Assembly (NCBI GenBank): GCA_963789955.1
Contig: CAWBMV010000034.1
Span: 992,001-1,056,000 of the forward strand
Source of the DNA: an uncultured Candidatus Rokubacteria bacterium
GTDB taxonomy: Bacteria > Methylomirabilota > Methylomirabilia > Rokubacteriales > CSP1-6
Direction of reading: 5' to 3'
Length of the DNA stretch: 64,000 nucleotides
Shown: one piece after another, positions 1-28,286 of the stretch
Layout of the letters: the number at the start of each line of letters is the position of its first letter
Position numbering within the stretch: position 1 is the stretch's first letter
Position numbers and translations under genes: made by a program
The notes under the pieces: generated by a model
The model's database searches: none
What the model was told of the DNA's origin: nothing
What the model saw: the letters and a program-made list of their open reading frames with translations, nothing else

Positions 1-209
1 TGGCGAAGCTCTTCGCCTCCGAGACCGCGGTCAAGATCACGGACGAAGCGGCCAGGATCTTCGCCTCCTACGGGCTCGCGATGGAGTATCCGGTCCAGCG
101 CTACTTCCGGGACGCGCGCTTCCTCCTGCCGGGAGGAGGCACCTCCGAGATCCTGCGCGTGATCATCGGGCGCGATCTCGACTGGGACCGAGGCCCGGCA
201 TTCGCCTGA
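1..209 (+). CDS. Acyl-CoA dehydrogenase, C-terminal fragment (runs in from the window edge)
   Basis: Read manually from position 3: [57 protein letters not shown]..., TGA at 207-209. Typical ACAD C-terminal motifs (AKLF, R.FRDA, GTSEI). Confidence 0.9.
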   Translation, partial: AKLFASETAVKITDEAARIFASYGLAMEYPVQRYFRDARFLLPGGGTSEILRVIIGRDLDWDRGPAFA

Positions 210-235
210 ACACCTAGCCCCTGACGGGAGGAACG

Positions 236-688
236 ATGCAATCACGCGGACGCTTCTTCGAGGATTTCAAGGTCGGCGAGGTGCTCGTGACCGGCCGCCG
301 CACGGTGGAGGGCGGCGACGTCTCGCGCTTCGCGGGCCTGACCGGCGACTTCAACCCGCTGCACACCGACGAGGTGTTCGCCGCGCAAACGCCGTTCGGC
401 GCCCGCGTGGCTCACGGTATCCTGACTCTCGCGGTGTCCAACGGGCAGCAGAACCTCTCGGGCTGGTTCGAGGGCACGGCCCTGGCGCTCCTCGGGCTCG
501 ACCGGCTGCGGTTCACCGCGCCGGTGAAGTTCGGCGACACCATCAACACCGAGATGACGGTCAAGCAGGCGCGCGAGTCCGCCAAGGGCGACCGCGGCGT
601 CGTGACCTTCGACGTCGTGGTGAAGAATCAGCGCGGCGAGGTGGTCTGCACCTACGAGGAGAACGTGCTCATGCGGAGGCGCGGGTGA
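236..688 (+). CDS. MaoC/PaaZ-like (R)-specific enoyl-CoA hydratase (hot-dog fold)
   Basis: [25 protein letters not shown] and PVKFGDTI motifs; GGGAGG RBS upstream. Confidence 0.9.
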
Positions 689-1428
689 AGCTCCGGGACC
701 GGATCGCGCTGGTCACGGGCGCGGCGAGCGGGATCGGCGCCGCGACGGCGCGTCGGTTCGCGCGCGAAGGCGCGACGGTCGCGATCAACGACGCGAAGCC
801 CGAAGGGCTCGACGCGGTCGCCGGCGAGATCCGCGCGGCCGGCGCGAAGGCGCTGGTGCTGCCGGGCGACGTGACGAAGAAGGCCGACTGCGAGCGGATC
901 GTGCAGGACGTCACCCGGACGTTCGGCCGGCTCGACATCCTGATCAACAACGCCGGGATCAATCGCGACGCGATGGCCGCCAAGATGACCGAGGAGCAGT
1001 GGGATGCGGTCCTGTCGGTGAACCTCAAGGGCACGTTCCTGTGCGCCCAGGCGGCGCTTCCGGGGATGCGCGAGCGGGCCTGGGGGCGGGTCGTCAACAC
1101 CTCGTCCATCGGCTCGCTCGGCAACATCGGGCAGGCGAACTACGCGGCGTCGAAGGCCGGCGTCATCGGGCTCACGAAGACGCTCGCGCTGGAATACGCC
1201 AAGTACGGCGTGACCGTGAACGCGATCGCGCCGGGGCCGGTCATGACGGCGATGCTGGCCGGCGTCCCGGAGGCGATCCGGGAGCGCATCATCGCCCAGG
1301 TGCCGGTCGGGAGAATCGCGTCGCCCGACGAGATCGCGGGGGTGCACGTGTTTCTCGCGTCGGACGATGCCGCGTTCATCACCGGGCAGGTCATCTTCGC
1401 CGACGGCGGGATGTCGGTGGGGATCTGA
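685..1428 (+). CDS. SDR 3-oxoacyl-(ACP/CoA) reductase, FabG/PhaB-like
   Basis: [13 protein letters not shown] and [14 protein letters not shown] (YxxxK) motifs; GTGA overlap with the upstream gene. Confidence 0.92.
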
Positions 1429-1437
1429 GAGGCGGTC

Positions 1438-2607
1438 ATGAGAAACGTCGCGCTGATCGGAGCGGGGGTCTCGAAGTTCGGCGTTCGGAAGGCGAGCTAT
1501 CGCGACCTGATCTGGGAGGCCGGCAAGGCGTGCTTCGACAGCGTGCCGGCGGTCAAGCCCAAAGACGTCGAAGGTCTCGTCGTCGGGTCGGTCATGCCGG
1601 AGCGGACGGCGTTCCAGTCCCACATCTCGTCGATGGCCGCCGAGGCCCTCGGGATCAGGCCGAGCGCCTTGAGCGCGCGCACGGAGCACATGTGCGCCTC
1701 GGGCACGGTCGGCATTCGCTATGCCTATGCCTTCATCGCCGCCGGACTGGCGGATCTCGTCATGGTGCTCGGCGTGGAGAAGCTGAACCAGCCGAACGGC
1801 GACGAGGCGATCCTGAACATGGGGACGGGTGTCGATCGCGAGTGGGAGGCCTCGTTCGGGCTCACCGCGCCGCCCTGCTTCGCGCTGGCCGCGCAGCGCC
1901 ACATCGCGGAGTACGGGACCACCGAGGAGCAGCTCGCGATGGTCGGCGTGAAGAACCACACGCACGCCTCGAAGAACCCCAACGCGCATTTTCAGCGGGG
2001 CGCGACGCTCGAGCAGGTGCTCGGCTCGCGCATGATCTCCTCGCCGCTCCGGCTCTTCATGTGCTCGCCGATCACCGACGGGGCGGCCGCGGTGCTGGTC
2101 GCGTCGGAGGAGCGCGCGCGCGAATTCACCGACCACCCGGTGTGGATCCGCGGCACCGGCCAGGCGCTCGACGGGTTCCAGCTGACGTCGCTTCACGAGG
2201 ACTACGCGCACTGGCCGGCGCTCGCGCGCGCGGCGCAGTCGGCCTACGGGATGGCGGGCGTGCGGGCGCAGGACATCGACGTCGCCGAGGTCCACGACTG
2301 CTTCGCGATCGCCGAGCTGATCGCCTACGAGGAGCTCGGGTTCTGCCGCAAGGGTGAGGCCGGCGCCTTCGTCGCCGACGGTCGAAGCGACTACGGCGGC
2401 GACGTCGTGGTGAACCCGCGCGGCGGACTCATGGGCTGCGGACATCCGCTCGGCGCCACCGGCGTCGCGCAGGCGGCCGAGGTGTTCGCTCAGCTCCGCG
2501 GCGAGGCCGGCGCCCGCCAGGTCCCGGACGCATCGGTCGGTCTCACGCACAACAACAGCGGGATGGGCGAGCACGTGGTCATGATCTACGGCCGCGAGCG
2601 TCGATGA
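1438..2607 (+). CDS. SCP2-type thiolase
   Basis: MCASG (catalytic Cys), EVHDCF, GHPLGATG; C-terminal HNNSG in place of CxG. Confidence 0.92.
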   Translation: MRNVALIGAGVSKFGVRKASYRDLIWEAGKACFDSVPAVKPKDVEGLVVGSVMPERTAFQSHISSMAAEALGIRPSALSARTEHMCASGTVGIRYAYAFIAAGLADLVMVLGVEKLNQPNGDEAILNMGTGVDREWEASFGLTAPPCFALAAQRHIAEYGTTEEQLAMVGVKNHTHASKNPNAHFQRGATLEQVLGSRMISSPLRLFMCSPITDGAAAVLVASEERAREFTDHPVWIRGTGQALDGFQLTSLHEDYAHWPALARAAQSAYGMAGVRAQDIDVAEVHDCFAIAELIAYEELGFCRKGEAGAFVADGRSDYGGDVVVNPRGGLMGCGHPLGATGVAQAAEVFAQLRGEAGARQVPDASVGLTHNNSGMGEHVVMIYGRERR

Positions 2608-3557
2608 AGCACGTCGCGGTCCTCGGGCCGGGAAGGATCGGGCGCCAGATCGCGCTCGCCTTCGCCCTCGGCGGGAGCCGCGTGTCCCTGGTCGACGTCA
2701 AGACTCGTCCGGCCGGCGGCGCCGCCGCGGTGTTCGCCGATGCGCGACGCGAGGTCCGCCGAGACCTCACGTTGATGGCCGAGGAGGGCGTGATCCAGCG
2801 CGCCGAGATCGAGCCGGCGCTCGGCCGAATCGACGACCGGACCGGGCTCGAAGGCCTCGAAGGCTGCGGGTTCGTGCAGGAAGCGCTGCCCGAGCTCGTC
2901 GACCTCAAGCGCGACGTTCTCGGGCGAGTGTCGGCGGCCGTCTCGCCCGAGACGATCATCGCCTCGACCAGCTCCACGATCTCGCCGAAGCACATGGCCG
3001 ACGCGGTCCGCGGCCCCGAGCGCTTCCTCGTCGTCCACTGGCTGAACCCGGCGCACATCATCCCGCTCGTGGAGGTCGTACCCGGACAGGCGACCGCGAG
3101 CACGGTCGTCGAGCGGACCATCGCCGCCCTCGAGAAGCTCGGCAAGGTTCCCGTGCGCTGCGCCGACTCGCCCGGATTCATCGGACCCCGGATGCAGGCG
3201 CTGCTGATGAACGAGGCCGTGCGTCTGGTCGAGGAAGGCGTCGCGACGCCGGAAGACGTCGACCGCGCCTTCAAGGCCGGCATGGGGTTTCGCTACGCGA
3301 CGGTCGGCATCTTCGAGTTCATCGACTGGGGCGGCGTCGACATCCTCCACCGCGCGAGCGGGTTCCTGGCCAAGGCGCTCGGCGACGACCGCTTTCGCGC
3401 CGCGCGGCTGGTCGAGGAGAAAATCGCGCGCAACGAGCTCGGCCCGAAGACCGGGCGCGGCTTCTTCGACTACGCGGGCGATCGGCGCGAGGCGTTCGAG
3501 ACCGCCAAGGTGCGCGACCTGCTCCGCCAGCTCCGGCGCCGGCGGGAGACGACGTGA
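2604..3557 (+). CDS. 3-hydroxyacyl-CoA (3-hydroxybutyryl-CoA-like) dehydrogenase
   Basis: GPGRIG Rossmann motif, EALPE, STSST, HWLNP..IPLVEVV, PGFI..R, KTGRGFFDY. Confidence 0.9.
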   Translation: MKHVAVLGPGRIGRQIALAFALGGSRVSLVDVKTRPAGGAAAVFADARREVRRDLTLMAEEGVIQRAEIEPALGRIDDRTGLEGLEGCGFVQEALPELVDLKRDVLGRVSAAVSPETIIASTSSTISPKHMADAVRGPERFLVVHWLNPAHIIPLVEVVPGQATASTVVERTIAALEKLGKVPVRCADSPGFIGPRMQALLMNEAVRLVEEGVATPEDVDRAFKAGMGFRYATVGIFEFIDWGGVDILHRASGFLAKALGDDRFRAARLVEEKIARNELGPKTGRGFFDYAGDRREAFETAKVRDLLRQLRRRRETT

Positions 3558-3982
3558 GCTACTTCCGGGCCACCGATCCGTTTCCGCTGGAGTCGGCCGA
3601 GCACACGAAGCTCCACGAGTTCTACGCGCGGCTCGCCGCCGGGCGGCTGGCGACGACGCGGTGCGCGGGCTGCAAGCGGCTCGCCTGGCCGCCGCGCGCG
3701 TTCTGTGGTGAATGCGGCTCGGACGCGTTCGACTGGGTCGACCTGTCGGGTGAAGGCACGATCCACGCGTTCACGATTCAGGAGGTGGGATTGCCCGGCG
3801 GCTTCGCGGGCCCGCGCGTCTTCGCGATCGTGAAGATCGATGGCCTCCGCGTGTTCTCGATCCTGGTCGACGCCGAGCCGGCGAAGGTGGCGATCGGCCA
3901 GGCCGTCCGCGTGTCGCCGCTCAGGGTCGCCGACGACCCGAACGGCAACGCGCGCTGGCTGCCGGCGTTCCGTCCGGCATGA
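3554..3982 (+). CDS. DUF35 Zn-ribbon/OB-fold protein (thiolase partner)
   Basis: CAGC...[11 protein letters not shown] followed by [10 protein letters not shown]. Confidence 0.88.
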
Positions 3983-4362
3983 AGGTGCTGATCGCCAAGC
4001 CCGGGCTCGACGGCCACGATCGGGGCGCCAAGGTCGTGGCCCACGCGCTCCGCGACGCGGGATTCGAGGTGGTCTACTCCGGACTCAAGCGGACGCCGGA
4101 CGAGATCGTGCGGGAAGCGATCCAGGAGGACGTCGACGTCATCGGTCTCTCGGTGCTCTCGGGCGCCCACCTCTTGCTGGCGCGCCGGATCATCGACGGG
4201 CTGCGGGCCCAGGACGCCGGCGACATCGCGGTGGTCGTCGGGGGTATCATTCCTCCGCGTGACGTCGAGGCGCTGAAGCAGCTGGGCGTGCGCCACGTGT
4301 TCCCGATGGGGACGCCGCTCCCCGACATCGTGAAGGCGTTCAAGAAGGAGCCGCCGCGTTGA
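3979..4362 (+). CDS. Acyl-CoA mutase small, cobalamin-binding subunit
   Basis: [13 protein letters not shown] (DxHxxG), [15 protein letters not shown]. Confidence 0.95.
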
Positions 4363-4410
4363 TTCCGCCGTGGGTCGACTTTCTCGAGCGATAGGGTCCA
4401 GGAGAACACG

Positions 4411-6006
4411 ATGAAAGAGATCAAAGCGCACGCCGGCTTCCCGATCGCACCGGTCTATGGTCCCGAGGACGTCGCGGGTGTCGACTTCGACCGCGACATC
4501 GGGCGGCCCGGCGAGTATCCGTACACGCGCGGGATCCACAAGCACATGTACCGCGACCGGCTCTGGACGATGCGCCAGTACGTCGGCTTCGGCACGCCGG
4601 CGGAGACCAACGCCCGATTCAAGTACCTGATGGCGCACGGGCAGGATGCGCTCAACGTCGCCTTCGACCTGCCGACGCAGCTCGGCCTCGACTCCGACGA
4701 TCCCAAGGCGGAAGGCGAGGTCGGTCGGGTCGGGATGGCGGTCGACACGCTCGCCGACATGGAGGAAGCGTTCGCCGGCATCCCGCTCGACCGCGTGAGC
4801 GTGTCGCTCACGATCAACGGCATGGCCGCGCCGATCACCGCCATGTACTACGCCGTCGCCGAGAAGCAGGGCGTGGCCGCCGAGCGCGTGGTCACCACGC
4901 CGCAGAACGACATCCTGAAAGAGTTCATCGCACGGGGCACGTGGATCTATCCGGTCGATCCCTCGCTGCGCCTCGTCGCGGATCTCATCGAGTTCTCGGC
5001 GCGCCACTATCCGCGCGCCAACCCCGTGTCCGTCTGCGGCTATCACATCCGCGAGGCCGGGTGCACCACCGCGCAGGAGATGGCGTACGGTCTGGCGATC
5101 GCCGCCGCCTACATCGAGCTGATGCTCGCGCGCGGCCTGGCGGTGGACGACTTCGCGCCGCGGATCTCGTTCAACTTCACCGCCTGGGGAAAGATCTTCG
5201 AGGAGGTCGCGAAGTTCCGCGCGGGGCGGCGGCTCTACGCGCGTATGCTCCGCGAGCGCTTCCACGCGTCCAATCCGAAATCGTGGATGTTCCGGAGCCT
5301 GATCGGCGGCGGCGGCTCGGCGTTCGCGGTCCAGGAGCCCGAGAACAACATCGTGCGCGGCGCGTACATCGCGCTCGCCGCGTCGCTCTCGGGCGCGCAG
5401 ACGATGGCGCTGCCGACCTACGACGAGGCGTACACCATCCCGTCGCCCAAGGCTCAGCTGATCGCGCTGCGCACGATGCAGATCTGCGCCGAGGAGTCGG
5501 GCGCGGCCGACACGGTGGATCCGCTCGCCGGCTCGTACTACGTGGAGTCCCTCACCAACGCGATGGAGAAGCGGATCGGGGAGGAGCTGGCGAGCGTCGA
5601 GCGCATGGGCGGCATCGTCGAGGCCGTCCGGACCGGCGCGATCCAGGCGGAGGTGGCGCGCCAGGCGTACCTGTACGAGCAGAGGGTCGTCTCGGGCGAG
5701 ATCCCGCGCGTCGCGGTCAACTGCCACGTCGGCGACGTCCCCGCCGAGGCCGATCGCGAGGTGGAGCTCTACGCCTTCGATTCGAAGGCGCACGCCGCTC
5801 AGCTGGCCAAGCTCGAGCGTACCCGCGCCCAGCGGGACGGCAGCGCGGCGCGGACGGCGCTGCGCCGGGTGGCCGAGGCGGCGCGCGGACGAGACAATCT
5901 GATGGACCCGATCATGGAAGCCGTGAAGGCGTACGCGACGCTCGGCGAGATCGCCCAGGCCATGCGCGACGTGTTCGGCGAGCACAAGGAAGCCGTGAAG
6001 TTCTGA
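4411..6006 (+). CDS. Adenosylcobalamin-dependent acyl-CoA mutase large subunit (methylmalonyl-CoA mutase family, atypical active site)
   Basis: [61 protein letters not shown]. Confidence 0.93.
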   Translation: MKEIKAHAGFPIAPVYGPEDVAGVDFDRDIGRPGEYPYTRGIHKHMYRDRLWTMRQYVGFGTPAETNARFKYLMAHGQDALNVAFDLPTQLGLDSDDPKAEGEVGRVGMAVDTLADMEEAFAGIPLDRVSVSLTINGMAAPITAMYYAVAEKQGVAAERVVTTPQNDILKEFIARGTWIYPVDPSLRLVADLIEFSARHYPRANPVSVCGYHIREAGCTTAQEMAYGLAIAAAYIELMLARGLAVDDFAPRISFNFTAWGKIFEEVAKFRAGRRLYARMLRERFHASNPKSWMFRSLIGGGGSAFAVQEPENNIVRGAYIALAASLSGAQTMALPTYDEAYTIPSPKAQLIALRTMQICAEESGAADTVDPLAGSYYVESLTNAMEKRIGEELASVERMGGIVEAVRTGAIQAEVARQAYLYEQRVVSGEIPRVAVNCHVGDVPAEADREVELYAFDSKAHAAQLAKLERTRAQRDGSAARTALRRVAEAARGRDNLMDPIMEAVKAYATLGEIAQAMRDVFGEHKEAVKF

Positions 6007-6008
6007 CG

Positions 6009-8294
6009 ATGGCCGAGCCGTTCGACGTCATCGGCAAATCGACCCCCAAGCGGGACGGCCCGGACAAGGTCACCGGGCGGACGCGCTATCTGCACGACCT
6101 CGAGCTGCCAAGGCTCTTGCACGGAAAGATCTTGCGCACGCCGGTGCCGCACGCACGGATCGTCCGGGTCGACACGAGCCGCGCCCGCGCGCTGCCGGGC
6201 GTGCTGGCGGTGCTGACGGGCGAAGACGTCGAGCAGCGGCCCTTCGGCTTCGCCAAGGACCAGATCGCGCTCAAGCGCGGCAAGGTGCGGTGCATCCGGG
6301 ACGAGGTGGCGGCGGTGGCGGCCGAGACGGCCGAGATCGCAGAGGAAGCACTCGCGTTGATCGACGCCGACTACGCGCCGCTGCCAGCGGTGTTCGATCC
6401 GCTGGCCGCGCTCGAGCCGGGCGCGCCGCTCGTGCACGAGGAGCTCACGACCAACGCGCATCATCTCCGCTACCGATTCGTTCACGGCGACGTCGACCGC
6501 GCGTTCGACGAGGCGGCGGCCGTGGTCGAGGACACGTACCGGTTGAACTTCGTCACGCCGGCGTGTCTCGGCACGATGGTCGCCATCGCCGACTGGGAGC
6601 CCACCACCGGCAGCCTCACCATGTGGTCCACGACCCAGGTGCCGTTCCTGTACCAGCGCGACCTCGGCGAGGCGCTCGGGATCGGCGGCGATCGCGTCCG
6701 GGTGCTGCAGCCTCCGGTCGGCGGCAACTTCGGCCGAGGCCTCGACATCTACCCGATCGACGTCATCGCCGCCATGCTCGCCCGCGCGGCGCGTCGGCCG
6801 GTGAAGATCGAGTTCGACCGCGTGGAGGAGTTCGTGGCCTGTCCGACGCGCGAGCCGTGCGCGATCCGGCTGCGCACGGCGGCCGACCGGGACGGACGGC
6901 TCCTCGCTCGCGACGCGCACGTGACGATCGACAGCGGCGCCTACACCTCCTGGGGCTCGACGACGCCCTACGTGATGATGTCGACGGTCGCCGGGCTCTA
7001 CCGGGTGCCGAACGTACGTTTCGACACGAGGATCGCGTACACGAACAATCCCTACTCCGGCTCGATGCGCGGCTACGGCAATCCCGAGTCCACGTTCGCG
7101 GTCGAGTCGCAGATGGACGACCTGGCCGATCGGCTCGGCATGGATCGACTCGAGCTCAGACGGCGGAACGTGACGAAGTCGGGCGACGTCAACCCCCAGG
7201 GATTCGTGCTCACCTCGTTCGCGATGCGTGAGTGCCTCGAGGCCGCGGCGGAGGAGATCGCGAAGACCCCGCCGCCAACGGTGCCCGGCTGGAAGCGCGG
7301 TGTCGGCTACGCCGGCATGTTCCACGTCGGCGGCGGCGCGCGCATCTACCGCTCGGACGGGTGCGGCGCGATCGTGAAGCTCGACGACTTCGGCAAGGTC
7401 ACGCTCATCACGGGCGCGAGCGAGATCGGCCAGGGCTCGGAGACGGTGCTCGCCATGATCGTCGCCGAGACGCTCGGCGTGCCGCTCGAGCGGGTCGACG
7501 TCGTCAACTCGGACACGAGCGTCAGACCCTGGGACGTCGGCACCCACGCGAGCCGCACGACGTTCGTCGCCGGCAATGCCGCGCGTCTGGCCGCGGAGAA
7601 GGTGAAGGCGCAGCTGCTCGAGACGGCCGCCGTGCAGTTCGGGGAGCCCGCGTCCGCGCTCTCTGTGAAGGGCGGCTGGGTCTTCGTCGAGCGCGACCCG
7701 CCGCGCCGACTCCAGTACGAGGCGGTGGGACGCGCGGGCCACTTCCGGGGCGGCGGCCGCATGCTGGTGGCCGAAGCGTTCTATGATCCGCCGACCACGA
7801 TGCTCGACAAGGATTTTCAGGGCAACGTGTCGGCCGCCTACACCTCGGCGTTTCAGGCGGTGCTCGTCGACGTCGATCCCGAGACGGGGCGAGTCGCCGT
7901 CCGCAAGGTCGTGTCCGCGCACGACGTCGGCCGGGCGCTGAATCCGGCCGCTGCCGAGGGCCAGGTGCACGGGGGCATCCACATGGGGCTCGGCTATGCG
8001 CTCTCCGAGAAGCTCGTCGTGGAGCAGGGCCAGGTGCTGAGCCAGACGTTCATGGACTATGCGGTGTTCAAGGCCGACGACATGCCCGAGATCGTCGTGC
8101 GGCTGATCGAATCCGTCGACGCCGAGGGGCCCTTCGGGGCCAAGGGCCTGGGCGAGTCCGGCGTGATTCCCGTCGCCGCCGCCGTTCGCAACGCGATCAA
8201 GGACGCGATCGGTGAGCGATTCACCGAGCTGCCGATCACCTCCGACCGCGTGCTCGTGTCCATTCAGCGGGCGGCCACACGCCATCCGCGGTAG
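6009..8294 (+). CDS. Xanthine dehydrogenase family molybdopterin-binding large subunit
   Basis: True start is ATG 6009 inside ORF 4941..8294. KVTG...Y, HARI, GGNFG, MRGYG, GQGSET, ASRTT, EGQVHGG and GAKGLGE motifs. Confidence 0.92.
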   Translation: MAEPFDVIGKSTPKRDGPDKVTGRTRYLHDLELPRLLHGKILRTPVPHARIVRVDTSRARALPGVLAVLTGEDVEQRPFGFAKDQIALKRGKVRCIRDEVAAVAAETAEIAEEALALIDADYAPLPAVFDPLAALEPGAPLVHEELTTNAHHLRYRFVHGDVDRAFDEAAAVVEDTYRLNFVTPACLGTMVAIADWEPTTGSLTMWSTTQVPFLYQRDLGEALGIGGDRVRVLQPPVGGNFGRGLDIYPIDVIAAMLARAARRPVKIEFDRVEEFVACPTREPCAIRLRTAADRDGRLLARDAHVTIDSGAYTSWGSTTPYVMMSTVAGLYRVPNVRFDTRIAYTNNPYSGSMRGYGNPESTFAVESQMDDLADRLGMDRLELRRRNVTKSGDVNPQGFVLTSFAMRECLEAAAEEIAKTPPPTVPGWKRGVGYAGMFHVGGGARIYRSDGCGAIVKLDDFGKVTLITGASEIGQGSETVLAMIVAETLGVPLERVDVVNSDTSVRPWDVGTHASRTTFVAGNAARLAAEKVKAQLLETAAVQFGEPASALSVKGGWVFVERDPPRRLQYEAVGRAGHFRGGGRMLVAEAFYDPPTTMLDKDFQGNVSAAYTSAFQAVLVDVDPETGRVAVRKVVSAHDVGRALNPAAAEGQVHGGIHMGLGYALSEKLVVEQGQVLSQTFMDYAVFKADDMPEIVVRLIESVDAEGPFGAKGLGESGVIPVAAAVRNAIKDAIGERFTELPITSDRVLVSIQRAATRHPR

Positions 8295-8302
8295 GAGTCG
8301 AT

Positions 8303-10602: not shown

Positions 10603-11073
10603 GCGCTCCGCCCGCGCTCGAAGCCGATGGCCGGGGCGGTCTCACGCTGGGCGGCGCGCGCTATCTGCTGATCCGGCCCGAAACGCTCGTCGGGCTCCAG
10701 AAGGCGGTGGAGCACGGCGCTCGGCGAGCGCGCGGCGTCGTGCATCGCCGCTGGAGGCCGGGCCGGCGGCGCGCGGGCGGCGGCGTCGCTCGGCGGATCG
10801 GCGGAAGAGCGAGTCGGCCGTCTGCTCCGGATCGGCGGTGAGATCGGCTGGGGCGAGTTCGCGCTCGAGCGTCTGACCGCGACCGAGCTGTCGGTCAGCG
10901 TGCGCCATTCGCCCGTCGCCGAGTCGTACGGGCCGTCCGCGGCCCCGGTGTGCCATCTCATCCGCGGCGTGCTCGAATCGCTGGCGACCGCGACCTTCGG
11001 TCGGCCGGCCACGGTCGCCGAGACCGCGTGCGTCGCGACGGGCGCGCCGGCCTGTCGCTTCGTGGCCTCGTGA
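10599..11073 (+). CDS. V4R-domain small-ligand-binding protein (one frameshift near 10718)
   Basis: Joined frames read MSAPP...RYLLIRPETLVGLQKAVEH/ALGERAA...IGWGEF...HSPVAESYG...PVCHLIRGVL...ETACVATGAPACRF, the V4R C...E..C...G...C.F signature. Confidence 0.8.
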
Positions 11074-11948
11074 CGGGCGCCGCCCTCGTCCACGTCGTGG
11101 TCAGCGGCCTCGCGACCGGCTCGATCTACGCGCTGATGGCGATCAGCCTCGTCATCATCTACAACGCGACCCGGACGCTCAACTTCGCGCAGGGCGAGAT
11201 GCTGATGATCTCGACGTTCGTGGGCTGGACCGCGCTGCAGGTGCTCGCGGTGCCTCTGGTCGTCGCGCTGCTGGTCGCCGTGGTCGCCGCGGCGCTCCTG
11301 GGCTTCCTGCTCGAGCGGCTGGTCATCCGCCATGCGATCTCGGCGACGCACTTCGACGTACTGATCATCACGCTCGGCTTGTCGCTGATGCTGCGCTCGG
11401 CCGCCGGGATCGCGTGGACCCACGACGAGTTTCCGTTCCCGTCGTTCTTCGGGAACCGGCCCCTCGCGATCGGCCCGGTGCGCGTGGCGCCGGTGTCGCT
11501 CGGCATCATCGGCGCGTCGCTCGGGCTCATGCTGGCCCTCGCCGCGCTGTTCCGCTGGACGCGCCTGGGCCGCGCGATGCGCGCGGTCGCGCAGAATCAG
11601 CGGGCGGCGCGGCTCATGGGGATCAGCGTCGAGCGCGTCTACTCGTCGTCCTGGGTCATCGCCTCGGTCGTCGGCGCCGTCGCCGGCGTGCTGATCGCGC
11701 CGGTCATCTTCCTTTCGTCGAAGATGGGGCTCGTCGCCATCAACGGATTCACGGCGGCCGTCCTGGGCGGGTTCGGCTCGATGCCGGGCGCGGTGGTCGG
11801 CGGCATGCTGCTGGGTGTCCTCGAGAACCTGGCGCCGCTCTACCTGCCCGCCTCGATCAAGCACTCCGTGCCGTTCCTGGTCATGATCACGATCCTGCTC
11901 GTGCGGCCCGGCGGCGTGCTCGGGCGCGTCGCGCGGCGAAAGGTCTGA
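11070..11948 (+). CDS. Branched-chain amino acid-type ABC transporter permease (LivH-like)
   Basis: GSIYALMA, NFAQGE, TRLGRAMRAVAQN, GGFGS; hydrophobic. Confidence 0.92.
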   Translation: MTGAALVHVVVSGLATGSIYALMAISLVIIYNATRTLNFAQGEMLMISTFVGWTALQVLAVPLVVALLVAVVAAALLGFLLERLVIRHAISATHFDVLIITLGLSLMLRSAAGIAWTHDEFPFPSFFGNRPLAIGPVRVAPVSLGIIGASLGLMLALAALFRWTRLGRAMRAVAQNQRAARLMGISVERVYSSSWVIASVVGAVAGVLIAPVIFLSSKMGLVAINGFTAAVLGGFGSMPGAVVGGMLLGVLENLAPLYLPASIKHSVPFLVMITILLVRPGGVLGRVARRKV

Positions 11949-12898
11949 TGCGACACGCCGCGCTCGCGACCGGCGCCGCGGTGGTGCTCGGCTGGCCGTG
12001 GGCCGCGCCGCCCTACTTCGTCTTCCTGGCGAGCCTGATCGCGATCAACGCGATCGTGGCCATCGGGCTCAATCTCCTCTCCGGCTACACGAATCAGCTG
12101 TCGTTCGGCCACGCCGGGTTCCTGGCGATCGGCGCGTACGCGGCGGCGATCCTCACGATCCGCGCGCCGGCGCTGCCGGTGCCGGTGACGCTCCTGATCG
12201 CGGGCCTCGTCACCGCGGCGGTGGGGTTGGCGCTGGGCGTGCCGTGCTTGAGGCTCGAAGGGCTCTATCTGGCCATGGCGACCCTCGCCTTCGGCTTCGT
12301 CGTGGTCGAGGCGATTCTGAGTCTCGACTGGCTCACGCGCGGTAACGACGGCCTGCGCGTGCCGGCGGCGCGCCTCGGCCCCTGGATGCTCTCGACCGAC
12401 ACCTCCCGCTACTACCTGGTCATGGCGGTCGCCGCGCTGTTGATCGTCGCCGCCGTCAACATCAGCCGGACGCGGACCGGGCGCGCGCTCCTGGCCGTGC
12501 GCGAGAGCGAGATCGCGGCGCAGGCGAGCGGCATCCACCTGGCCGCGTACAAGACCTTGGCCTTCGTCGTGTCGGCCTTCTACACCGGCGTGGCCGGCGG
12601 CCTCTTCGCACTCGTCGTCGGCTTCCTCTCGCCCGATTCCTTCGACGTCTTCCTGTCGGTGGACTTCGTCGCGATGATCATCGTCGGCGGCCTCGGCTCG
12701 ATCCTGGGCTCCGTGGTGGGCGCCGCCGTCATCACGACCCTCAACGACTCACTCGCCGGCTTTCAGAACTACCGGCCGCTGATTTTCGGCGCGATCCTGA
12801 TAACGTCCATGCTGTTCATGCCCGGCGGCATCGCGAGCGCGCTCGGTAAGATTGCCGGGGCGCGCTCCAGGCCCTCTCGACAAGGAGACGATCGATGA
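11948..12898 (+). CDS. ABC transporter permease (LivM-like)
   Basis: GLNLLSGY..QLSFGHAGF, YLAMATLAF, GRALLAVRESE, GGLGS. Confidence 0.92.
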   Translation: MRHAALATGAAVVLGWPWAAPPYFVFLASLIAINAIVAIGLNLLSGYTNQLSFGHAGFLAIGAYAAAILTIRAPALPVPVTLLIAGLVTAAVGLALGVPCLRLEGLYLAMATLAFGFVVVEAILSLDWLTRGNDGLRVPAARLGPWMLSTDTSRYYLVMAVAALLIVAAVNISRTRTGRALLAVRESEIAAQASGIHLAAYKTLAFVVSAFYTGVAGGLFALVVGFLSPDSFDVFLSVDFVAMIIVGGLGSILGSVVGAAVITTLNDSLAGFQNYRPLIFGAILITSMLFMPGGIASALGKIAGARSRPSRQGDDR

Positions 12899-14059
12899 TC
12901 AGCCGCTCGAGCGTTCTGCTGCTCCTGGCTCTCGCGCTTGAGCGCGCTGCCCGCCGGCGCCCAGACGCCGGGTGTCAGCGACACCGAGATCGTGATCGGC
13001 GGATCGAACTCGTTCTCGGGCCCGCTCGCCTTCACGGGAGAGCAGATCACCAAATACGGCGTCGATCTCTACTTCAAGGTGATCAACGACGCGGGCGGGA
13101 TCCACGGGCGCAAGGTCCGCACCGTCTACTACGACGACGCCTATCGCCCGCAAGACGCCGTGGCCAACACCAAGAAGCTCGTCGAGCAGGACCGCGTCTT
13201 CGCGATCATCATCCCGCAGGGCTCGCCGCCGGTGGTCGCGACGCTCGACTATCTCGAGGAGAACAAGGTCCCGCTGCTCTTCCCGTATCAGAGCTCGCCG
13301 GTGACCCGCGGCAAGCGCTACGTGATGCAGGGGATGACCCTGAGCGATCGGTCGTCGAAGATGATGATCGACTACCTGGCCGGGCAGCGGAAGGTCAAGA
13401 AGTTCGCCGCGCTCTACCAGGACGACGAGTACGGCAAGTCGTTTCTCACCGCCTTCGAGAAGGATCTGGGGCGCTACGGCCTCAAGCTCGTCGCCGCCGA
13501 ATCGGTCAAGCGCGGGGTCACCGACGTGAGCGCGCAGGTCGCGAAGCTCCAGGCGGCGAAGCCCGAGGTGACGTTCCTCGTGCTGGTGCCGGGCCCGGGC
13601 GCGCAGGCATTGAAGGAGCGCCAGAAGATCGGCTGGACCGACACGATCATGGTCTCGACGGGCCCGCTGACGGACGAGCGCTACCTGGCGCTCGCCGGGG
13701 ACGCCGCCGAGGGGGTCGAGGGGCTCTCGCTCTGGCCCGATCCGGTGAGCTCCGATCTGCCGGGCGTGAAGCTCTACCGGGAGCACATGCGGCGCTACTT
13801 CCCGCAGAACGAGCCGAATCGGTACTCGATCGCCGGCTACTTCGCGGCCATGCTCTTCGCGGAAGGCGCCAAGCGCGCCGGCCGGAACCTGACGCGCGAC
13901 TCGCTGATGACCGCGCTCGAGTCCTTCAAGGGCTACGAGAGCGGCATCCTGCCGCCGATCACGATCGGCCCCGACCACGAGACGCAGAAGCAGGGATTCT
14001 GGGTGCGGGTCGAGAAGGGCAGCTTCAAGCCGATGACGGACTGGCTCAAGTCCGAGTAA
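12895..14059 (+). CDS. ABC substrate-binding protein (LivK-like; frameshift in the signal peptide near 12935)
   Basis: AQTPGVSDTEIVIG, INDAGGIHGRK, DDAYRP; signal peptide starts in the 12895 frame. Confidence 0.9.
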
Positions 14060-14063
14060 GGCG

Positions 14064-14828
14064 GTGCTCGGTGTCGAAGATCTCTCGATCAGCTTCGGCG
14101 GCCTCGCGGCGCTGAGCGGGCTCAGCTTCGAGGTCCGCGATCGGGAGATCTTCGCGCTGATCGGCCCCAACGGCGCCGGCAAGTCGACCGTGTTCAACGT
14201 GATCACGGGCCTCTACCGTCCCTCGAAGGGCCGGATCACTCTCGGCGGCGACGACTTGCGCGCGCTGGCGCCGCATCAGATCGCGCGGCGGGGTGTCGCG
14301 CGCACGTTCCAGAACACCGAGGTGTTTCGCCAGCTGACGGCCCTCGACAACGTCCTGATCGGCCGCCACAGCCATCTGCGTACGGGCGTGATTCGCGGCG
14401 CGCTGTGGCTGCCGGGTGTCCGGAGCGAGGAAGCGCGCGCGCGCGAGGCGGCCCACGCGCTGCTGGCGCGCTTCGGGCTCGGCGACGTCGCCGCGACCGA
14501 AGCGGGCAGCCTGCCGCTGGGCGCCCAGAAGCGGCTCGAGATCGCCCGGGCGCTGGCCTCCGAGCCGCGGCTCCTCCTGCTCGACGAGCCGGCGGGCGGG
14601 CTCAACCCCACGGAGACCAGGACGTTGATGGCGGTCATCCGAGGCCTGCGGGACGAACGCGGGCTGACGATCGTGGTGGTCGAGCACGACATGGAGCTGG
14701 TGATGGGTATCTCGGACCGCGTGGCCGTGCTCGACCACGGGCGCAAGATCGCGGAAGGCGAGCCCCGGCAGATCGTGACCGACGCCGCTGTCGTCGAGGC
14801 GTATCTGGGCAGCGAGGAGGACGCGTGA
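14064..14828 (+). CDS. ABC ATP-binding protein (LivG-like)
   Basis: GPNGAGKST, RTFQN, LLDEPAGG, EHDM. Confidence 0.93.
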   Translation: MLGVEDLSISFGGLAALSGLSFEVRDREIFALIGPNGAGKSTVFNVITGLYRPSKGRITLGGDDLRALAPHQIARRGVARTFQNTEVFRQLTALDNVLIGRHSHLRTGVIRGALWLPGVRSEEARAREAAHALLARFGLGDVAATEAGSLPLGAQKRLEIARALASEPRLLLLDEPAGGLNPTETRTLMAVIRGLRDERGLTIVVVEHDMELVMGISDRVAVLDHGRKIAEGEPRQIVTDAAVVEAYLGSEEDA

Positions 14829-15562
14829 TTCCCGTGCTCGAGCTCGACGACGTCGCGGTCGCGTACGGCAAGCGGCGCGCGCTCGACGGGCTGACCTTGC
14901 GCGTGTTGCCGGGCGAGATCGTCACGTTGCTGGGCGCGAACGGCGCGGGAAAGTCGACGACCTTGCGCGCGGTGTCCGGGCTCGTGCGACCGACGCAGGG
15001 TCGCATCCGCTACGAGGGCCGCGACATCACCCGCGTCCCGGCCGACACCATCGTGGCCGCCGGCGTCAGCCACGTCCCCGAGGGCCGCGAGATCTTCCCG
15101 GAGTTCTCGGTTCACGAGAACCTGCTCGTCGGCGGCCACACCGTGGAGCGGTCGCGGATCGTCGAGCGGCTGGAGTCGGTCTTCCGCCTCTTCCCCGTGC
15201 TCCGCGATCGGAAGGCGCAGATCGCCGGCACCCTCTCGGGCGGCGAGCAGCAGATGCTCGCCATCGGCCGCGCGCTGATGACGCGGCCGCGGCTCCTGCT
15301 CCTGGACGAGCCCTCGCTCGGGCTGGCGCCGATCCTCGCGCGCGAGATCTTCCGGGTGATCCGGCGCATCAACGACGACGGCGTCGCGGTGCTGCTCGTC
15401 GAGCAGAACGCGCGGCGCGCGCTCGCGCTCGCCTCCCGCGGCTACGTCCTCGAGACCGGGCGGCTCGTCACGTCGGGCACGAGTGCCCAGCTCACGGCCG
15501 ATCCGCGCGTCCGCACCGCCTACCTCGGACTCGACCGCGTCCGCGGCGACGTCGCGGGCTGA
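14825..15562 (+). CDS. ABC ATP-binding protein (LivF-like)
   Basis: GANGAGKST, LSGGEQQM, DEPSLGLAP, VEQNA. Confidence 0.93.
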   Translation: MIPVLELDDVAVAYGKRRALDGLTLRVLPGEIVTLLGANGAGKSTTLRAVSGLVRPTQGRIRYEGRDITRVPADTIVAAGVSHVPEGREIFPEFSVHENLLVGGHTVERSRIVERLESVFRLFPVLRDRKAQIAGTLSGGEQQMLAIGRALMTRPRLLLLDEPSLGLAPILAREIFRVIRRINDDGVAVLLVEQNARRALALASRGYVLETGRLVTSGTSAQLTADPRVRTAYLGLDRVRGDVAG

Positions 15563-15596
15563 CGCGCTAGACTCCATGGCCGTGAGCGGGAGCACG

Positions 15597-16868
15597 ATGT
15601 GGCAGCCCGAGCTCGAGACCCTCGATCGCGAGCCGCTCGAGCGGCTCGTCGTCGAGCGGATGCGCGCGACGCTCGCTCGAGTCCTGAGCGAGCCGGCCTG
15701 GGCGCGCCGTCTCGGGGGCGTCCGCCCCGGAGACATCGCGCGTGTCGCGGACTGGCGGACGCTGCCGTTCCTCACCAAGGACGAGCTCCGCGACGCGTAC
15801 CCCTACGGGCTCGCGTGCGCGCGCGCGGCCGGCTACCGGCGCATCCAGATGTCGAGCGGCACGACCGGCAACCCGATCTTGAATCCGTACACGGACGGCG
15901 ATGTGGCGCAGTGGGGCGAGGTCATGGCGCGCTGCTACGCCGCCGCGGGTGTCGGCCGCGACGACGTCATCCAGATCACGCCCTCGTTCGGCCTGTTCAC
16001 CGGCGGATTCGGCTTCCACTACGGCGCCGAGAGGATCGGGGCGATGGTGATCCCCACCGGCGCCGGCCGGACGGCGCTGCAGCTCCGCCTCATGCGCGAT
16101 CTGAAGGCGACCGTCGTCACCGCGATCGCGACCTATCCGCTGCGCCTGATCGAGGCGGCGCGCGAGGACGGCTTCGATCTGGCCTCGCTCTCGCTCCGGG
16201 TCGGCATCCTCGGCTCGGAGATGTGGTCCGACGAGCTGAGAGCGCGCATCGAGCGTGAGCTCGGCATCCGGACCTTCGACATCATCGGCATGACCGAGAC
16301 CGGCGGGCCCGGACTCGGCATCGACTGCGCCGCCCGCCGCGGCGTCCACGTCTGGGAAGACCACTACTACCCCGAGGTCATCGATCCGATGACCGGCGCG
16401 GTCGTGCCGGACGGGACGGAGGGTGAGCTCGTCCTCTCGACCTTGACGCGCGAGGGGCTGCCGCTCGTCCGCTATCGAACGCACGACCTGACGCGGATCG
16501 TGTCGCGCGCGCGCTGTGACTGCGGCCGCACGTCGCTGAGGCTCGACCGGCTTCGCGGCCGCGTCGACGACATGGTGATCTACAAGGGCATCAACTTCTA
16601 TCCGCGACAGATCGAGACCGCCTTGTTGAAGCACGCCGGCGTGAGCCACGAGTATCAGGTCGTGCTCGACTCGGATGGCGGCGGCGAGCGGATGACGATC
16701 CACGTCGAGACGGACCCCGGGTGCGACCCGGCGGTCGCCGCGCGGATCCGGCGGGAGCTCCACGACGTGCTGGCGCTGAGTCCCGAGATTCGTCTGTGCG
16801 CCCACGGCGCGATCGAGCGGGCGCAGGGCAAGGCGGTGCGCGTCGTCGATCGCCGTCCGCGGCGATGA
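15597..16868 (+). CDS. Phenylacetate-CoA ligase family (PaaK-like) aryl/acyl-CoA ligase
   Basis: LPFLTKDELRDAYPYG, SSGTTG, GLFTGG.GFHYGAE, WEDH, RYRTHDL, GRVDDM, GKAVRVVDRR. Alternative start at 15576. Confidence 0.9.
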   Translation: MWQPELETLDREPLERLVVERMRATLARVLSEPAWARRLGGVRPGDIARVADWRTLPFLTKDELRDAYPYGLACARAAGYRRIQMSSGTTGNPILNPYTDGDVAQWGEVMARCYAAAGVGRDDVIQITPSFGLFTGGFGFHYGAERIGAMVIPTGAGRTALQLRLMRDLKATVVTAIATYPLRLIEAAREDGFDLASLSLRVGILGSEMWSDELRARIERELGIRTFDIIGMTETGGPGLGIDCAARRGVHVWEDHYYPEVIDPMTGAVVPDGTEGELVLSTLTREGLPLVRYRTHDLTRIVSRARCDCGRTSLRLDRLRGRVDDMVIYKGINFYPRQIETALLKHAGVSHEYQVVLDSDGGGERMTIHVETDPGCDPAVAARIRRELHDVLALSPEIRLCAHGAIERAQGKAVRVVDRRPRR

Positions 16869-18040
16869 GTCGCGGGCTCCTCGCGGGCGTGACCGTGCTG
16901 AGCCTCGAGCAGGCCACGACGTTGCCGTTCCTGACCTATCGGCTCGCCTGCGACGGCGCCCGGGTCATCCGTGTCGAGAATGCCGAGCGGCCCGATCCGA
17001 ACCGGTTCGTCGGCAGCGACGTGCTTCACGAGCCGGCGATGCGCAGCTATTTCCTGCCGAACAACTGCGGCAAGGAAGCGATCACCCTGAACCTCGGCCA
17101 TCCCGAGGGCCAGGCGCTCTTGCGACAGCTGATCGTGAAGCTCGGTGTCGACGTGTTCGCCTGCAACCAGCGCCCGCGAAGCTACGCCCGTCTCGGGATC
17201 GAGCCCGGGCCGCTCACGGCCGTGAAGCCGGATCTGATCTGGCTCGGGATCACCGGATTCGGACCCGAGCACGACGAGGCGGCGTACGATCCGGTGCTCC
17301 AGGCGCGCTCGGGGTTCATGGAGCTGACGGGCGAGCCGAACGGGTCGCCGCTCGTCTTCGGCTTGCCGATGGTCGATCTGGGCGCGGCCGAGCACGGCTA
17401 CGGCGAGGTGATGAAGGCGCTCTATCGCCGCGCGACGACGGGCGAGGGCGCGCGGATCGACGTGTCGATGCTCCGGAGCGCGGTGTCGTGGATGGTCGCG
17501 CCCGTCGCGCTCTCGAGCCTCGGCGAGCGCGTGACTCGCAAGGGCAATCGCCATCAGTTCTTCGCGCCGGTGGCCGTGCACCGGACCCGCGACGGCCACG
17601 TCTATCTGGCGATCGGCAACGATCAGCAGTGGGCGGCGCTGACGGCGCTGCCCGCGTTCAGCCGGCTCGCTCGGCCCGAGTACACCGCCAACGCGGGCCG
17701 CATCGGCGACGTCGAGCGGCTCGACCGCGAGCTGGCCGCGTGCTTCGCCGGTCTCTCGAGCGACGAGGCGCTCGAATCGCTGCGGCGGGCGGGCGTGCCG
17801 GTCTCTCGCGTGAACACCCTGGCCGACGTGATGGTCGATCGGTTCGTCGCCGACAAGCTCGTGGAGATCACGGACCCGCGCTCGGGGCTCCGGATCGCGC
17901 TGCCGGCCCCGCCGGTCGGCGCGCCGCCGGCGCTCAGCTTTCCGCCCCGACTCGGCGAGCACAATGAGAAGATCTACGGCGAAGCGCTCGGCCTGGGGCC
18001 CGAGCAGCTTGCCGACCTGCAGCGGCGACAGATCGTCTGA
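16865..18040 (+). CDS. Class III CoA-transferase (CaiB/BaiF family), divergent
   Basis: LAGVTVLSLEQA, GARVIRVE, PMVDLGA, PPRLGEHN. Confidence 0.88.
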   Translation: MSRGLLAGVTVLSLEQATTLPFLTYRLACDGARVIRVENAERPDPNRFVGSDVLHEPAMRSYFLPNNCGKEAITLNLGHPEGQALLRQLIVKLGVDVFACNQRPRSYARLGIEPGPLTAVKPDLIWLGITGFGPEHDEAAYDPVLQARSGFMELTGEPNGSPLVFGLPMVDLGAAEHGYGEVMKALYRRATTGEGARIDVSMLRSAVSWMVAPVALSSLGERVTRKGNRHQFFAPVAVHRTRDGHVYLAIGNDQQWAALTALPAFSRLARPEYTANAGRIGDVERLDRELAACFAGLSSDEALESLRRAGVPVSRVNTLADVMVDRFVADKLVEITDPRSGLRIALPAPPVGAPPALSFPPRLGEHNEKIYGEALGLGPEQLADLQRRQIV

Positions 18041-18054
18041 GGGAGACGCGAACC

Positions 18055-19202
18055 ATGAACGACGTGTTTTATCTCACCGAAGAGCAGCGGATGATCCGCG
18101 ATCTCGCCCGCAAGGTCGCGCGCGACCGGATCGCGCCGAACGCTGCGCAAGTACGACGAGGAAGAGAGCTATCCGACGGAGTCGATGCGCGCGCTCGTCG
18201 ACGCCGGCCTCTTCGGCATCTGGGTGCCGGAAGAGTACGGCGGCTCGAACATGGGCTGCCTCGCGCTCTCGCTGGTCGCCGAGGAGCTCGGGTGGGCGTG
18301 CGCGGGCACGACGACGAACTTCGGCGCCCATCCGCTCGGCGGGCTGCCGATCGTGCTGGCCGGCAGCGAGGAGCAGAAGAAGAAGTACCTGCCGCGGCTC
18401 GCGACCGGCGAGTTCATGGCGGCCTACTCGCTCTCGGAGCCGGGATCGGGCTCGGACGCCGCGAGCCTCCGGACGACGGCGGTGCGCAAGGGGGATCACT
18501 ACGTCCTGAACGGATCGAAGCAGTGGTGCTCCCACGGCGACCACGCCGATGTGCTCACGGTCTTTGCGACGGTCGATCCGGGCAAGCGCGCGAAGGGCAT
18601 CACGGCGTTTCTCATCGAGAAGGGCATGCCCGGCTTCTCGGTCGGCAAGAAAGAACGGAAGATGGGTATCCGCTGCTCGCCCACCGTGGCGCTCCACTTC
18701 ACGGACTGCGCCGTGCCGGTCGCAGCAGCGCCTGGGTGACGAAGGCGAGGGATTCAAGATCGCGATGCGCACGCTCGACATGACGCGACCGATGACGGGC
18801 GCGATGGCCGTCGGGATCGGCCAGGCGGCGCTCGATGCGGCGACGGCGTACGCGAAGGAGCGCCAGCAGTTCGGCCAGCCGATCGCCGCGTTCCAGGGCA
18901 TCCAGTTCATGCTCGCGGACATGGCGATGCAGGTGCACGCGGCGCGGCTCATGGTCCATCACGCCGCCCGGCAGGTCGACGCCGGCATCCGCGGCAACAC
19001 CTTGGAGGCGTCGATGGCCAAGTGCTGGGCCGGCGACGCCGCCATGAAGGTCGCCACCGATGCCGTGCAGATCTTCGGCGGCTACGGATACACGCGCGAG
19101 TTCCCGGTGGAGCGGTTCATGCGCGACGCGAAGATCATGCAGATCTACGAGGGGACGAATCAGATCCAGCGAATGATCATCGCCAAGGAGCTTCTAGGAT
19201 GA
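18055..19202 (+). CDS. Acyl-CoA dehydrogenase (frameshifts near 18145 and 18725)
   Basis: Three consecutive ORF pieces: [10 protein letters not shown] / PEEYGG...SEPGSGSD...KMGIR / GEGFKIAM...[17 protein letters not shown]. Confidence 0.9.
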
Positions 19203-20464: not shown

Positions 20465-20467
20465 GCT

Positions 20468-20640: not shown

Positions 20641-20702
20641 GACAACCCGCAGCGGCGGCACCACCCCATTCCGGCGCGCGAGCCTAGTCACTCGGAGTTG
20701 AC

Positions 20703-22528: not shown

Positions 22529-23236
<708 letters not shown>

Positions 23237-28284: not shown

Positions 28285-28286
28285 GC

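Follow-up and report, generated by a model that had tools for sequence, protein, structure and literature searches.

The 64,000-nucleotide stretch of contig CAWBMV010000034.1 from an uncultured Candidatus Rokubacteria bacterium (hereafter the window) opens within an operon that combines a B12-dependent mutase, a molybdenum (Mo) hydroxylase, an opine dehydrogenase and a stand-alone V4R protein with genes for beta-oxidation. From our point of view, and with a probability of about 0.72, this operon encodes a Rokubacterial variant of the anaerobic indoleacetate (iaa) pathway, which would convert the plant hormone indoleacetate (IAA), or else an indole-acetate closely resembling it, into 2-aminobenzoyl-CoA without O2. 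It is of the same core ancestry as the iaa pathway, and strict membership fails on the ligase, the lactamase, the thiolase and the small subunits. A sequence-only reading of the window had recognised the logic of the iaa pathway, in which a Mo hydroxylase, a CoA ligase and a class III transferase are combined with a B12 mutase, a decarboxylating acyl-CoA dehydrogenase (ACAD) and beta-oxidation. This part is borne out. The reading had gone on to propose a new pathway for a different substrate, pointing to the missing hydantoinase genes and to the opine dehydrogenase. Both grounds fail: hydantoinase genes are indeed absent inside the window and yet lie contiguously just 5' of it, and the opine dehydrogenase is tied to indoleacetate loci, being found beside iac and iad genes in other bacteria.

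For comparison, three reference iaa loci (A. buckelii, A. anaerobium and a Rhodocyclales metagenome-assembled genome) were retrieved via the iaaF primer of PMC8360864. Reciprocal searches back into the source genome used the A. buckelii proteins as queries, and the trees comprised the best 26-40 matches together with the genome's own paralogs, partial matches below 60-80% coverage being excluded. The labels IaaA, B, C, E, I, J and M in these loci are our assumption, taken from gene order, family and lengths that match PMC8453981 (707/564 aa).

IaaF, IaaH, IaaK and IaaL have orthologs by tree in the operon, and those of IaaF, IaaK and IaaL are additionally reciprocal best matches in 3/3 genomes and fall into clades with supports of 99-100 (FastTree), the genome's paralogs lying outside. 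The first ACAD is 48-49% identical to the IaaF references and carries the motif GGG, as do 119/120 of its close homologs, three of the 120 listed bearing the JGI name benzylmalonyl-CoA dehydrogenase. The available text of PMC8360864 defines the IaaF subclass by this replacement of YEG and places all members in iaa operons. The Mo subunit (47-51% to IaaK) and the second CoA-transferase (42-45% to IaaL) each reach a clade support of 100 (FastTree), the IaaL-clade transferase being absent from several related clusters. The mutase large subunit, the genome's best match to IaaH at 53% identity, groups in the IaaH clade with a support of 100 (quick IQ-TREE) and outside the methylmalonyl-CoA mutase (MCM) clade. 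It shares with IaaH the segments SVCGYH, a Gly-rich GGG and QTMAL..YDEAYTIP, where MCM has SISGYH, HCQTSG and QSLHTN; it lacks the MCM pocket segments and scores below the cut-off of PRK09426. The mutase small subunit is 48-50% identical to IaaG, but since another small subunit of the genome scores slightly higher, its orthology to IaaG rests on position. A search of plasmid records with the mutase returned generic homologs only, at ~48% identity or less. One relative (G192, L143 10001-11125) holds a second GGG-type ACAD, ~50% identical to that of the window, on its own branch within the IaaF clade.

The operon starts ~5.6 kb 5' of the window with gntR, hydantoinase A, hydantoinase B and the first ACAD, which are contiguous and co-oriented on the same contig; the 5' 951 nt of the ACAD lie outside the window. 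Positions there are given in the numbering of the extended stretch (L001), in which 19601 corresponds to window position 1. The 24 genes that run from gntR through the second binding protein meet at 23 junctions. Of these, 14 are overlaps, 4 nt long in 13 cases and 1 nt in the remaining one, and the widest gap measures 103 nt, the GC content being ~65-72% across the window. All gene families of the roughly 20 co-oriented, tightly packed genes listed in the sequence-only reading were recovered on the plus strand and in place by open reading frame (ORF) calls, Pfam and NCBIfam. Four single-base frameshifts (in V4R at ~10715, in the binding-protein leader at ~12938 and in the last ACAD at ~18148 and ~18722) are assembly errors, since at each site the extra base is absent from near-identical contigs in 3/4 public runs (two DNA and one RNA library) and the affected genes are intact in relatives. 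The RNA-library contigs covering the region cannot show transcription or its level and were not counted toward expression or habitat. The palindrome TGTCTAGACA lies ~34 nt 5' of gntR, its exact 10-mer occurring nowhere else in the genome, and may represent the operator of the regulator; the motif GTNTANAC occurs in 41/51 distinct upstream regions, versus 0.5 in shuffles. The second Liv-type transporter is probably co-transcribed with the operon and, among relatives with contigs long enough to include it, mostly comes after the cluster; its membership of the pathway is uncertain.

The following route is proposed for these enzymes. After uptake by a Liv-type ABC transporter, the PaaK-type ligase would, judging from its family, form IAA-CoA, which the IaaK-type Mo enzyme, with FeS and FAD subunits encoded elsewhere, would hydroxylate at C2 to the oxindole, a step for which the orthology of the Mo subunit speaks. 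The ATP-dependent hydantoinase pair (HyuAB), non-orthologous to IaaCE, might then open the lactam to (2-aminophenyl)succinyl-CoA, the CoA would be moved by the orthologous IaaL-type transferase, and the IaaGH-type mutase, given its orthology and pocket motifs, would deliver (2-aminobenzyl)malonyl-CoA. Its oxidation and decarboxylation to 2-aminocinnamoyl-CoA would fall to the dehydrogenase with the GGG signature, and MaoC, FabG and the SCP2-type thiolase with its DUF35 partner may finally release acetyl-CoA and 2-aminobenzoyl-CoA. Since class I benzoyl-CoA reductase B (bcrB) was not found in the genome (87% complete), it is probable that a monooxygenase of the PRK08255 family, encoded outside the operon, uses O2 to attack the ring. 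The genome holds a PRK08255 protein above cut-off, which we take to be a 2-aminobenzoyl-CoA monooxygenase, and boxB, and this combination suggests an O2-dependent handling of the aromatic product. No family match was obtained among selected ORFs neighbouring the PRK08255 gene, and the IOR-like genes of the genome score below cut-off.

Several parts of the reference loci are replaced or missing. The inspection of upstream DNA and the phylogenies proposed in the sequence-only reading gave a divided answer, in that hydantoinase A and B were found and the IaaF, IaaH, IaaK and IaaL clades are supported, but the operon carries no xanthine dehydrogenase (XDH) FAD/FeS subunit genes and the cluster no IaaB ortholog. 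The hydantoinases are 36/29% identical to the references. An IQ-TREE phylogeny places B apart from the IaaE clade, and A likewise lies outside the IaaCE clade (FastTree). IaaE-type genes occur in 16/251 genomes of the phylum. Longer versions of the operon in G121, G212, G239 and G242 carry, in addition to the resident lactamase, IaaCE-type genes between V4R and livH. These are 48-49%/56-58% identical to A. buckelii, and trees assign those of G242 and G239 to the IaaCE clade, so that the version in the window has most simply lost iaaCE. The FAD/FeS subunit genes (iaaIJ) are likewise absent from the same-family copies retrieved, whereas in sister-family clusters they precede the Mo subunit. In this genome, 24/34 XDH-family loci encode the large subunit with no FeS/FAD genes next to it, so that their absence from the operon is the local norm; the count suggests that the XDH-family enzymes of the genome use shared small subunits.

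The cluster yielded no match to the IaaB ligase or the IaaA thiolase and has a PaaK-type ligase, whose closest solved relatives are phenylacetate-CoA ligases, and an SCP2-type thiolase, to which the Aromatoleum iaa thiolase gives no match. MaoC (in 9/10 relatives) and FabG (in 1/10, but common in the sister family) occupy the place of a crotonase-dehydrogenase fusion seen in one reference locus. The binding protein of the first Liv transporter is 26-31% identical to the reference iaa binding proteins, and the first CoA-transferase, in its clade apart from IaaL, occurs also in sister-family clusters. The genes could have been straightforward orthologs of a complete known iaa cluster, as the sequence-only reading had envisaged; this applies to IaaF, IaaH, IaaK and IaaL and not to the cluster as a whole, since iaaIJ is missing and there is no orthology for the ligase, the lactamase, the thiolase, the binding protein or the regulator. 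Being absent from 5/10 relatives, V4R was rejected as an essential pathway enzyme. In an intact relative it weakly matches the domains of phenol-sensing regulators (E 0.011), and a ligand-binding role is possible. Two ordinary YEG-type ACAD paralogs flank the operon, the last ACAD forming the sister clade of the one 5' of gntR (FastTree, via relatives); the latter and a DinB_2 gene, together at L001 12194-13875, precede gntR in many relatives.

The opine dehydrogenase, previously taken as a sign of a new substrate, points back to IAA, since its subfamily lies beside IAA loci and an opine dehydrogenase is IAA-induced in Variovorax. The protein is 41-44% identical to Acinetobacter, Paracoccus and other proteobacterial proteins, with which it shares subfamily motifs, and it matches the solved enzyme 1bg6 over the full length (E 8e-40) with His, Arg289 and Asp294 aligned, residues that are presumably catalytic in 1bg6. 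Its partner is the PRK08269-like 3-hydroxyacyl dehydrogenase, which scores below the model's cut-off, the Acinetobacter and Paracoccus partners scoring above it. The best 12 plasmid matches of this partner all adjoin an opine dehydrogenase homolog; four of the 12 records (Acinetobacter and three Burkholderia) hold an iacC-type gene within ~13 kb, and in one (Paracoccus) the pair abuts genes matching iadCDEFGHIJ by order, class and length. The iac gene functions follow Table 3 of PMC11676955. Since iacC was found in 31/72,556 plasmid records, and the pair is present in no more than 4 of the 30 that were listed, the pair is accessory to the pathway. According to the supplement of PMC9613470, the Variovorax iad region opens with genes for an opine dehydrogenase and a 3-hydroxybutyryl-CoA dehydrogenase (Supp. 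Table 1), homologs of the pair in P. putida 1290 bear accession numbers adjacent to those of its iac genes, and the z-score of the Variovorax opine dehydrogenase increases with IAA, in the wild type from -1.61 to +1.50 and in an iadDE mutant from -1.56 to +3.34 (Supp. Table 9).

An opine dehydrogenase was found neither in the three reference genomes nor in 300 sampled genomes of their class, the latter searched without a positive control. In proteobacteria the PRK08269 gene accompanies the opine dehydrogenase, mostly without an adjacent beta-oxidation ACAD or thiolase; in the window the two lie 6 kb apart, and some relatives have the opine dehydrogenase without the partner. The main texts of PMC8383072, PMC11630574, PMC12852158, PMC7225977 and PMC10329457 mention neither opine nor octopine, those of PMC9613470, PMC12633357 and PMC11676955 do not mention octopine, and no function for the pair was found in the literature covered, subscription journals and most supplements (including files 6 and 13 of PMC9613470) being outside its scope. 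We infer that both dehydrogenases form an accessory feeder module. One could tentatively imagine that they use NAD to oxidise the alpha-carbon of an indolyl C3 acid, such as an N-substituted tryptophan or indole-3-lactate, and that the resulting indole-3-pyruvate enters the pathway as IAA(-CoA), an assignment that we consider possible, if somewhat short of probable.

It was also considered that HyuAB and the opine dehydrogenase act as a single opine-lactam module. This idea is weakened by the sister family, in which 16/17 genomes carry this HyuB and 0/21 the dehydrogenase, and further by clusters in G241 and G242 that have HyuB without the dehydrogenase. It is kept alive by a plasmid record of the haloarchaeon Natrinema gelatinilyticum (L175), where a lactamase of the same type (47%), a short-chain dehydrogenase, the opine dehydrogenase and its partner, a ligase, a transferase and XDH subunits are found with no mutase or IaaF within 50 kb.

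Across the phylum, an IaaF-like gene of at least 70% identity is present in 114/251 genomes (121 matches minus 7 at 42-46%) and the opine dehydrogenase in 87/251, all of one family. Of these 87 genomes, 79 also have the IaaF-like gene, on the same contig in 51, always 8-17 kb away, and on a different contig in 28. A lack of synteny in relatives, which the sequence-only reading had allowed for, was not observed, as the gene order is kept in 10/10 relatives chosen on the opine dehydrogenase, save single losses and insertions. The hyuB gene lies directly 5' of the IaaF-like gene in 55/55 informative metagenome loci (80 were examined, of which 25 ended too near for upstream DNA); relatives and metagenome loci are kin and not independent. 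The operon's lactamase type occurs in 16/17 sister-family genomes, whose retrieved clusters carry the full three-subunit Mo enzyme, and the IaaK-type Mo subunit is present in nearly every retrieved copy whose contig reaches the position, G117 being a copy in which it was not seen. In relatives (L026-L045, L126-L160) the gaps between core genes are hot spots of unrelated single-gene insertions that differ by genome, among them an alpha/beta hydrolase, a metallophosphoesterase, methyltransferases, ankyrin proteins, cytochrome b and ABC binding proteins.

A number of observations weigh against an iaa-type assignment. The core identities are no higher than 42-53%, the trees have no references beyond three Rhodocyclales loci, and most of the trees were built with FastTree or as quick trees. 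One sulfate reducer has three IaaF paralogues, according to the available text of PMC8360864, so that the IaaF clade may cover more than one substrate. An IaaE-type gene was found neither in this genome (87% complete) nor in any of the 17 genomes of the genus, and since the resident lactamase coexists with IaaCE in the longer operons, it may prefer a different lactam. There is no orthology to Iaa proteins for the ligase, the thiolase, the binding protein and the regulators, and no FAD/FeS partner of the Mo subunit could be singled out in the genome. As to the dehydrogenase pair, 7/12 plasmid records showed no iac/iad neighbour (five checked with 10-15 kb flanks, two by the iacC search alone, with 30 of its 31 matches listed), and the tie to the Variovorax CL14 proteins is indirect, being drawn from annotation and identities in the supplement of PMC9613470.

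In an unlikely alternative, the chemistry is the same and the substrate or entry has shifted. After loss of iaaCE and iaaIJ, the operon might mainly open another lactam to an (amino)arylsuccinate, for instance 2-oxo-1,2,3,4-tetrahydroquinoline-4-carboxylate (a six-ring lactam), a ring-substituted oxindole-acetate or another heteroaryl-acetate, which amounts to a weaker form of the idea first put forward for this DNA. The separate clade of the lactamase and its coexistence with IaaCE, the genus without IaaE-type gene, the missing Mo small subunits, the non-orthologous ligase, transporter and regulator, and the Natrinema locus would all be in line with it. However, the Mo subunit of IaaK type, which in the iaa route yields a five-ring oxindole, is kept in nearly all retrieved copies that reach its position, the absence of small subunits is the local norm, the same lactamase accompanies the three-subunit Mo enzyme in the sister family, and the accessory dehydrogenases are IAA-linked elsewhere.

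Equally doubtful is a funnel for indolyl-alkanoates, which is compatible with an IAA pathway and differs only in the role of the extra genes: the YEG-type ACADs, the first transferase, the PRK08269-like dehydrogenase and the second Liv transporter would shorten indole-3-butyrate-like acids by beta-oxidation to IAA-CoA, ahead of the iaa core. The two flanking ACAD paralogs and the duplication of both transferase and ABC system would be accounted for, and indole-3-butyrate and -propionate are among the ligands of the Variovorax regulator (PMC9613470 Supp. Table 2). The opine dehydrogenase, however, would be left without a role, the proteobacterial PRK08269 gene keeps company with that dehydrogenase and mostly has no beta-oxidation ACAD or thiolase beside it, and the degradation of indole-3-butyrate and -propionate is stated as unreported in the abstract of PMC7225977. 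Ordinary propionate or branched-chain acid metabolism, with a methylmalonyl- or isobutyryl-CoA mutase amid generic beta-oxidation genes, which had been named as a competing explanation from the outset, is highly improbable, for in spite of TIGR00640/TIGR00641 MCM-domain models above cut-off and a Tyr retained at the MCM Tyr89-equivalent position, the pocket segments depart from MCM as in IaaH, the genome has other mutases (one in this window near ETF and an ilvE-like gene), and the GGG-type ACAD and the IaaK and IaaL clades contradict it in the trees.

Returning to the iaa variant, one could speculate more broadly that Rokubacteria form a large unrecognised soil auxin sink with a hybrid route, consisting of an O2-free, B12-dependent upper part and an O2-dependent ring attack, in which a dehydrogenase pair common to all three known IAA-catabolic systems converts an unrecognised tryptophan-derived metabolite (an N-substituted tryptophan/opine or indole-3-lactate) to IAA, and a second lactamase clade opens a six-ring quinolinone lactam formed from cyclised (2-aminophenyl)succinyl-CoA. 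The operon would then provide the context for assigning these two orphan activities. Taken jointly, this is rather improbable.

Table 1. Features of the operon and its flanks (window positions unless marked L001).
Feature	Position	Strand	Basis
Putative operator TGTCTAGACA	L001 13968-13977		palindrome in 41/51 upstream regions
GntR/UTRA (HutC-type) regulator	L001 14003-14728, 5' of window	+	Pfam
Hydantoinase A	L001 about 14725-16797, 5' of window	+	Pfam, tree
Hydantoinase B	L001 16794-18545, 5' of window	+	Pfam, tree
IaaF-type decarboxylating benzylmalonyl-CoA dehydrogenase, 3' end	1..209 (whole gene L001 18649-19809)	+	GGG motif, identity, reciprocal best match, tree
MaoC (R)-type enoyl-CoA hydratase	236..688	+	Pfam
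FabG-like short-chain dehydrogenase	685..1428	+	NCBIfam
SCP2-type thiolase, DUF35 partner	1438..2607	+	PRK06064 above cut-off (NCBIfam)
PRK08269-like 3-hydroxyacyl dehydrogenase	2604..3557	+	best NCBIfam model PRK08269, 365 bits, cut-off 427
DUF35 zinc-ribbon/OB-fold thiolase partner	3554..3982	+	Pfam
B12-binding mutase small subunit, IaaG-like	3979..4362	+	identity to IaaG, position
Mutase large subunit, IaaH clade	4411..6006	+	identity, pocket segments, tree
XDH-family Mo subunit, IaaK clade	6009..8294	+	identity, reciprocal best match, tree
Class III CoA-transferase 1, not IaaL	8303..9496	+	Pfam; separate clade in tree
Opine-dehydrogenase-family protein	9493..10602	+	shared subfamily motifs; 1bg6 alignment
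Stand-alone V4R protein, one assembly frameshift	10599..11073	+	Pfam V4R
Liv-type ABC transporter 1: livH, livM, binding protein (12895-14059), livG, livF	11070..15562	+	Pfam
PaaK-type arylacetate-CoA ligase	15576..16868, start 15576 or 15597	+	NCBIfam PaaK models, below cut-off
Class III CoA-transferase 2, IaaL clade	16865..18040	+	identity, reciprocal best match, tree
Second ACAD, ordinary YEG motif, two assembly frameshifts	18055..19202	+	Pfam, tree
Liv-type ABC transporter 2	19199..23947	+	4-nt overlap with last ACAD

Further downstream, positions 24025-31146 hold HemP-like, ExbB, ExbD, TonB, TPR, PepSY-like and TonB-dependent receptor genes, named from their translations only, which may constitute an iron/haem uptake cluster. 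The genome's only trpD above cut-off (anthranilate phosphoribosyltransferase) lies at 31940-33025, and in the relatives G007 and G021 a trpD-like ORF follows within ~1 kb of the operon's last genes; a link to recycling of the 2-aminobenzoate product is possible, as is chance. Positions 33235-41650 (GntR, ETF beta/alpha, ACAD, a second mutase large subunit, an ilvE-like gene, HIT, a mutase small subunit, ACAD) look like branched-chain acid catabolism, and the ETF there could serve the operon's dehydrogenases. The second large subunit (~36900-38558) is frameshifted and has Phe at the Tyr89-equivalent position, a motif from which we take it to be isobutyryl-CoA-mutase-like.

Overall, the operon is a variant of a known pathway and not a new pathway type, and it extends B12-dependent arylsuccinate chemistry to the Rokubacteria lineage, a widespread uncultured soil group. 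No paper linking Rokubacteria to indoleacetate or to this pathway was found among the matches listed, subscription journals being outside the scope. The survey of auxin degraders in PMC11630574 is, according to its available text, based on iac and iad markers only, and an iaa-type route in 114/251 genomes of a soil phylum would hence escape it. The two-gene dehydrogenase module, so far unexplained, recurs beside three unrelated IAA pathways, including both O2-using routes, and since it is IAA-induced in a genetically tractable Variovorax strain, its function is directly testable.

The closest known system is the iaa operon of Aromatoleum aromaticum/evansii, reportedly described by Ebenau-Jehle in 2012 and Schuhle in 2016 (as cited in PMC8360864, PMC8453981 and PMC9613470). 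Both operons have the IaaF (GGG), IaaGH mutase, IaaK Mo subunit and IaaL transferase orthologs, an ATP-dependent hydantoinase pair directly 5' of iaaF, GntR-family control and a Liv-type binding protein. Where Aromatoleum has the FACL-type IaaB, the Rokubacterial operon has a PaaK-type ligase, its lactamase belongs to another clade, iaaCE is lost in the genus and iaaIJ is missing; MaoC, FabG, the SCP2-type thiolase and DUF35 stand in for the classical thiolase and crotonase-dehydrogenase fusion of the reference loci, a transferase, an ACAD, V4R and the dehydrogenase pair come in addition, and the source genome has PRK08255 and boxB with no bcrB found. The pair itself resembles genes 77/76 of Variovorax paradoxus CL14 in its annotation as opine and 3-hydroxybutyryl-CoA dehydrogenase and in its tie to IAA catabolism, but in CL14 and P. 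putida 1290 the two genes are adjacent and belong to O2-dependent iad/iac routes (supplement of PMC9613470), whereas here they are set apart in an iaa-type operon. With 1bg6, an N-(1-D-carboxylethyl)-L-norvaline dehydrogenase, the opine dehydrogenase has in common the full-length match and the aligned His/Arg/Asp, but the subfamily motifs differ, and the substrate is not transferable.

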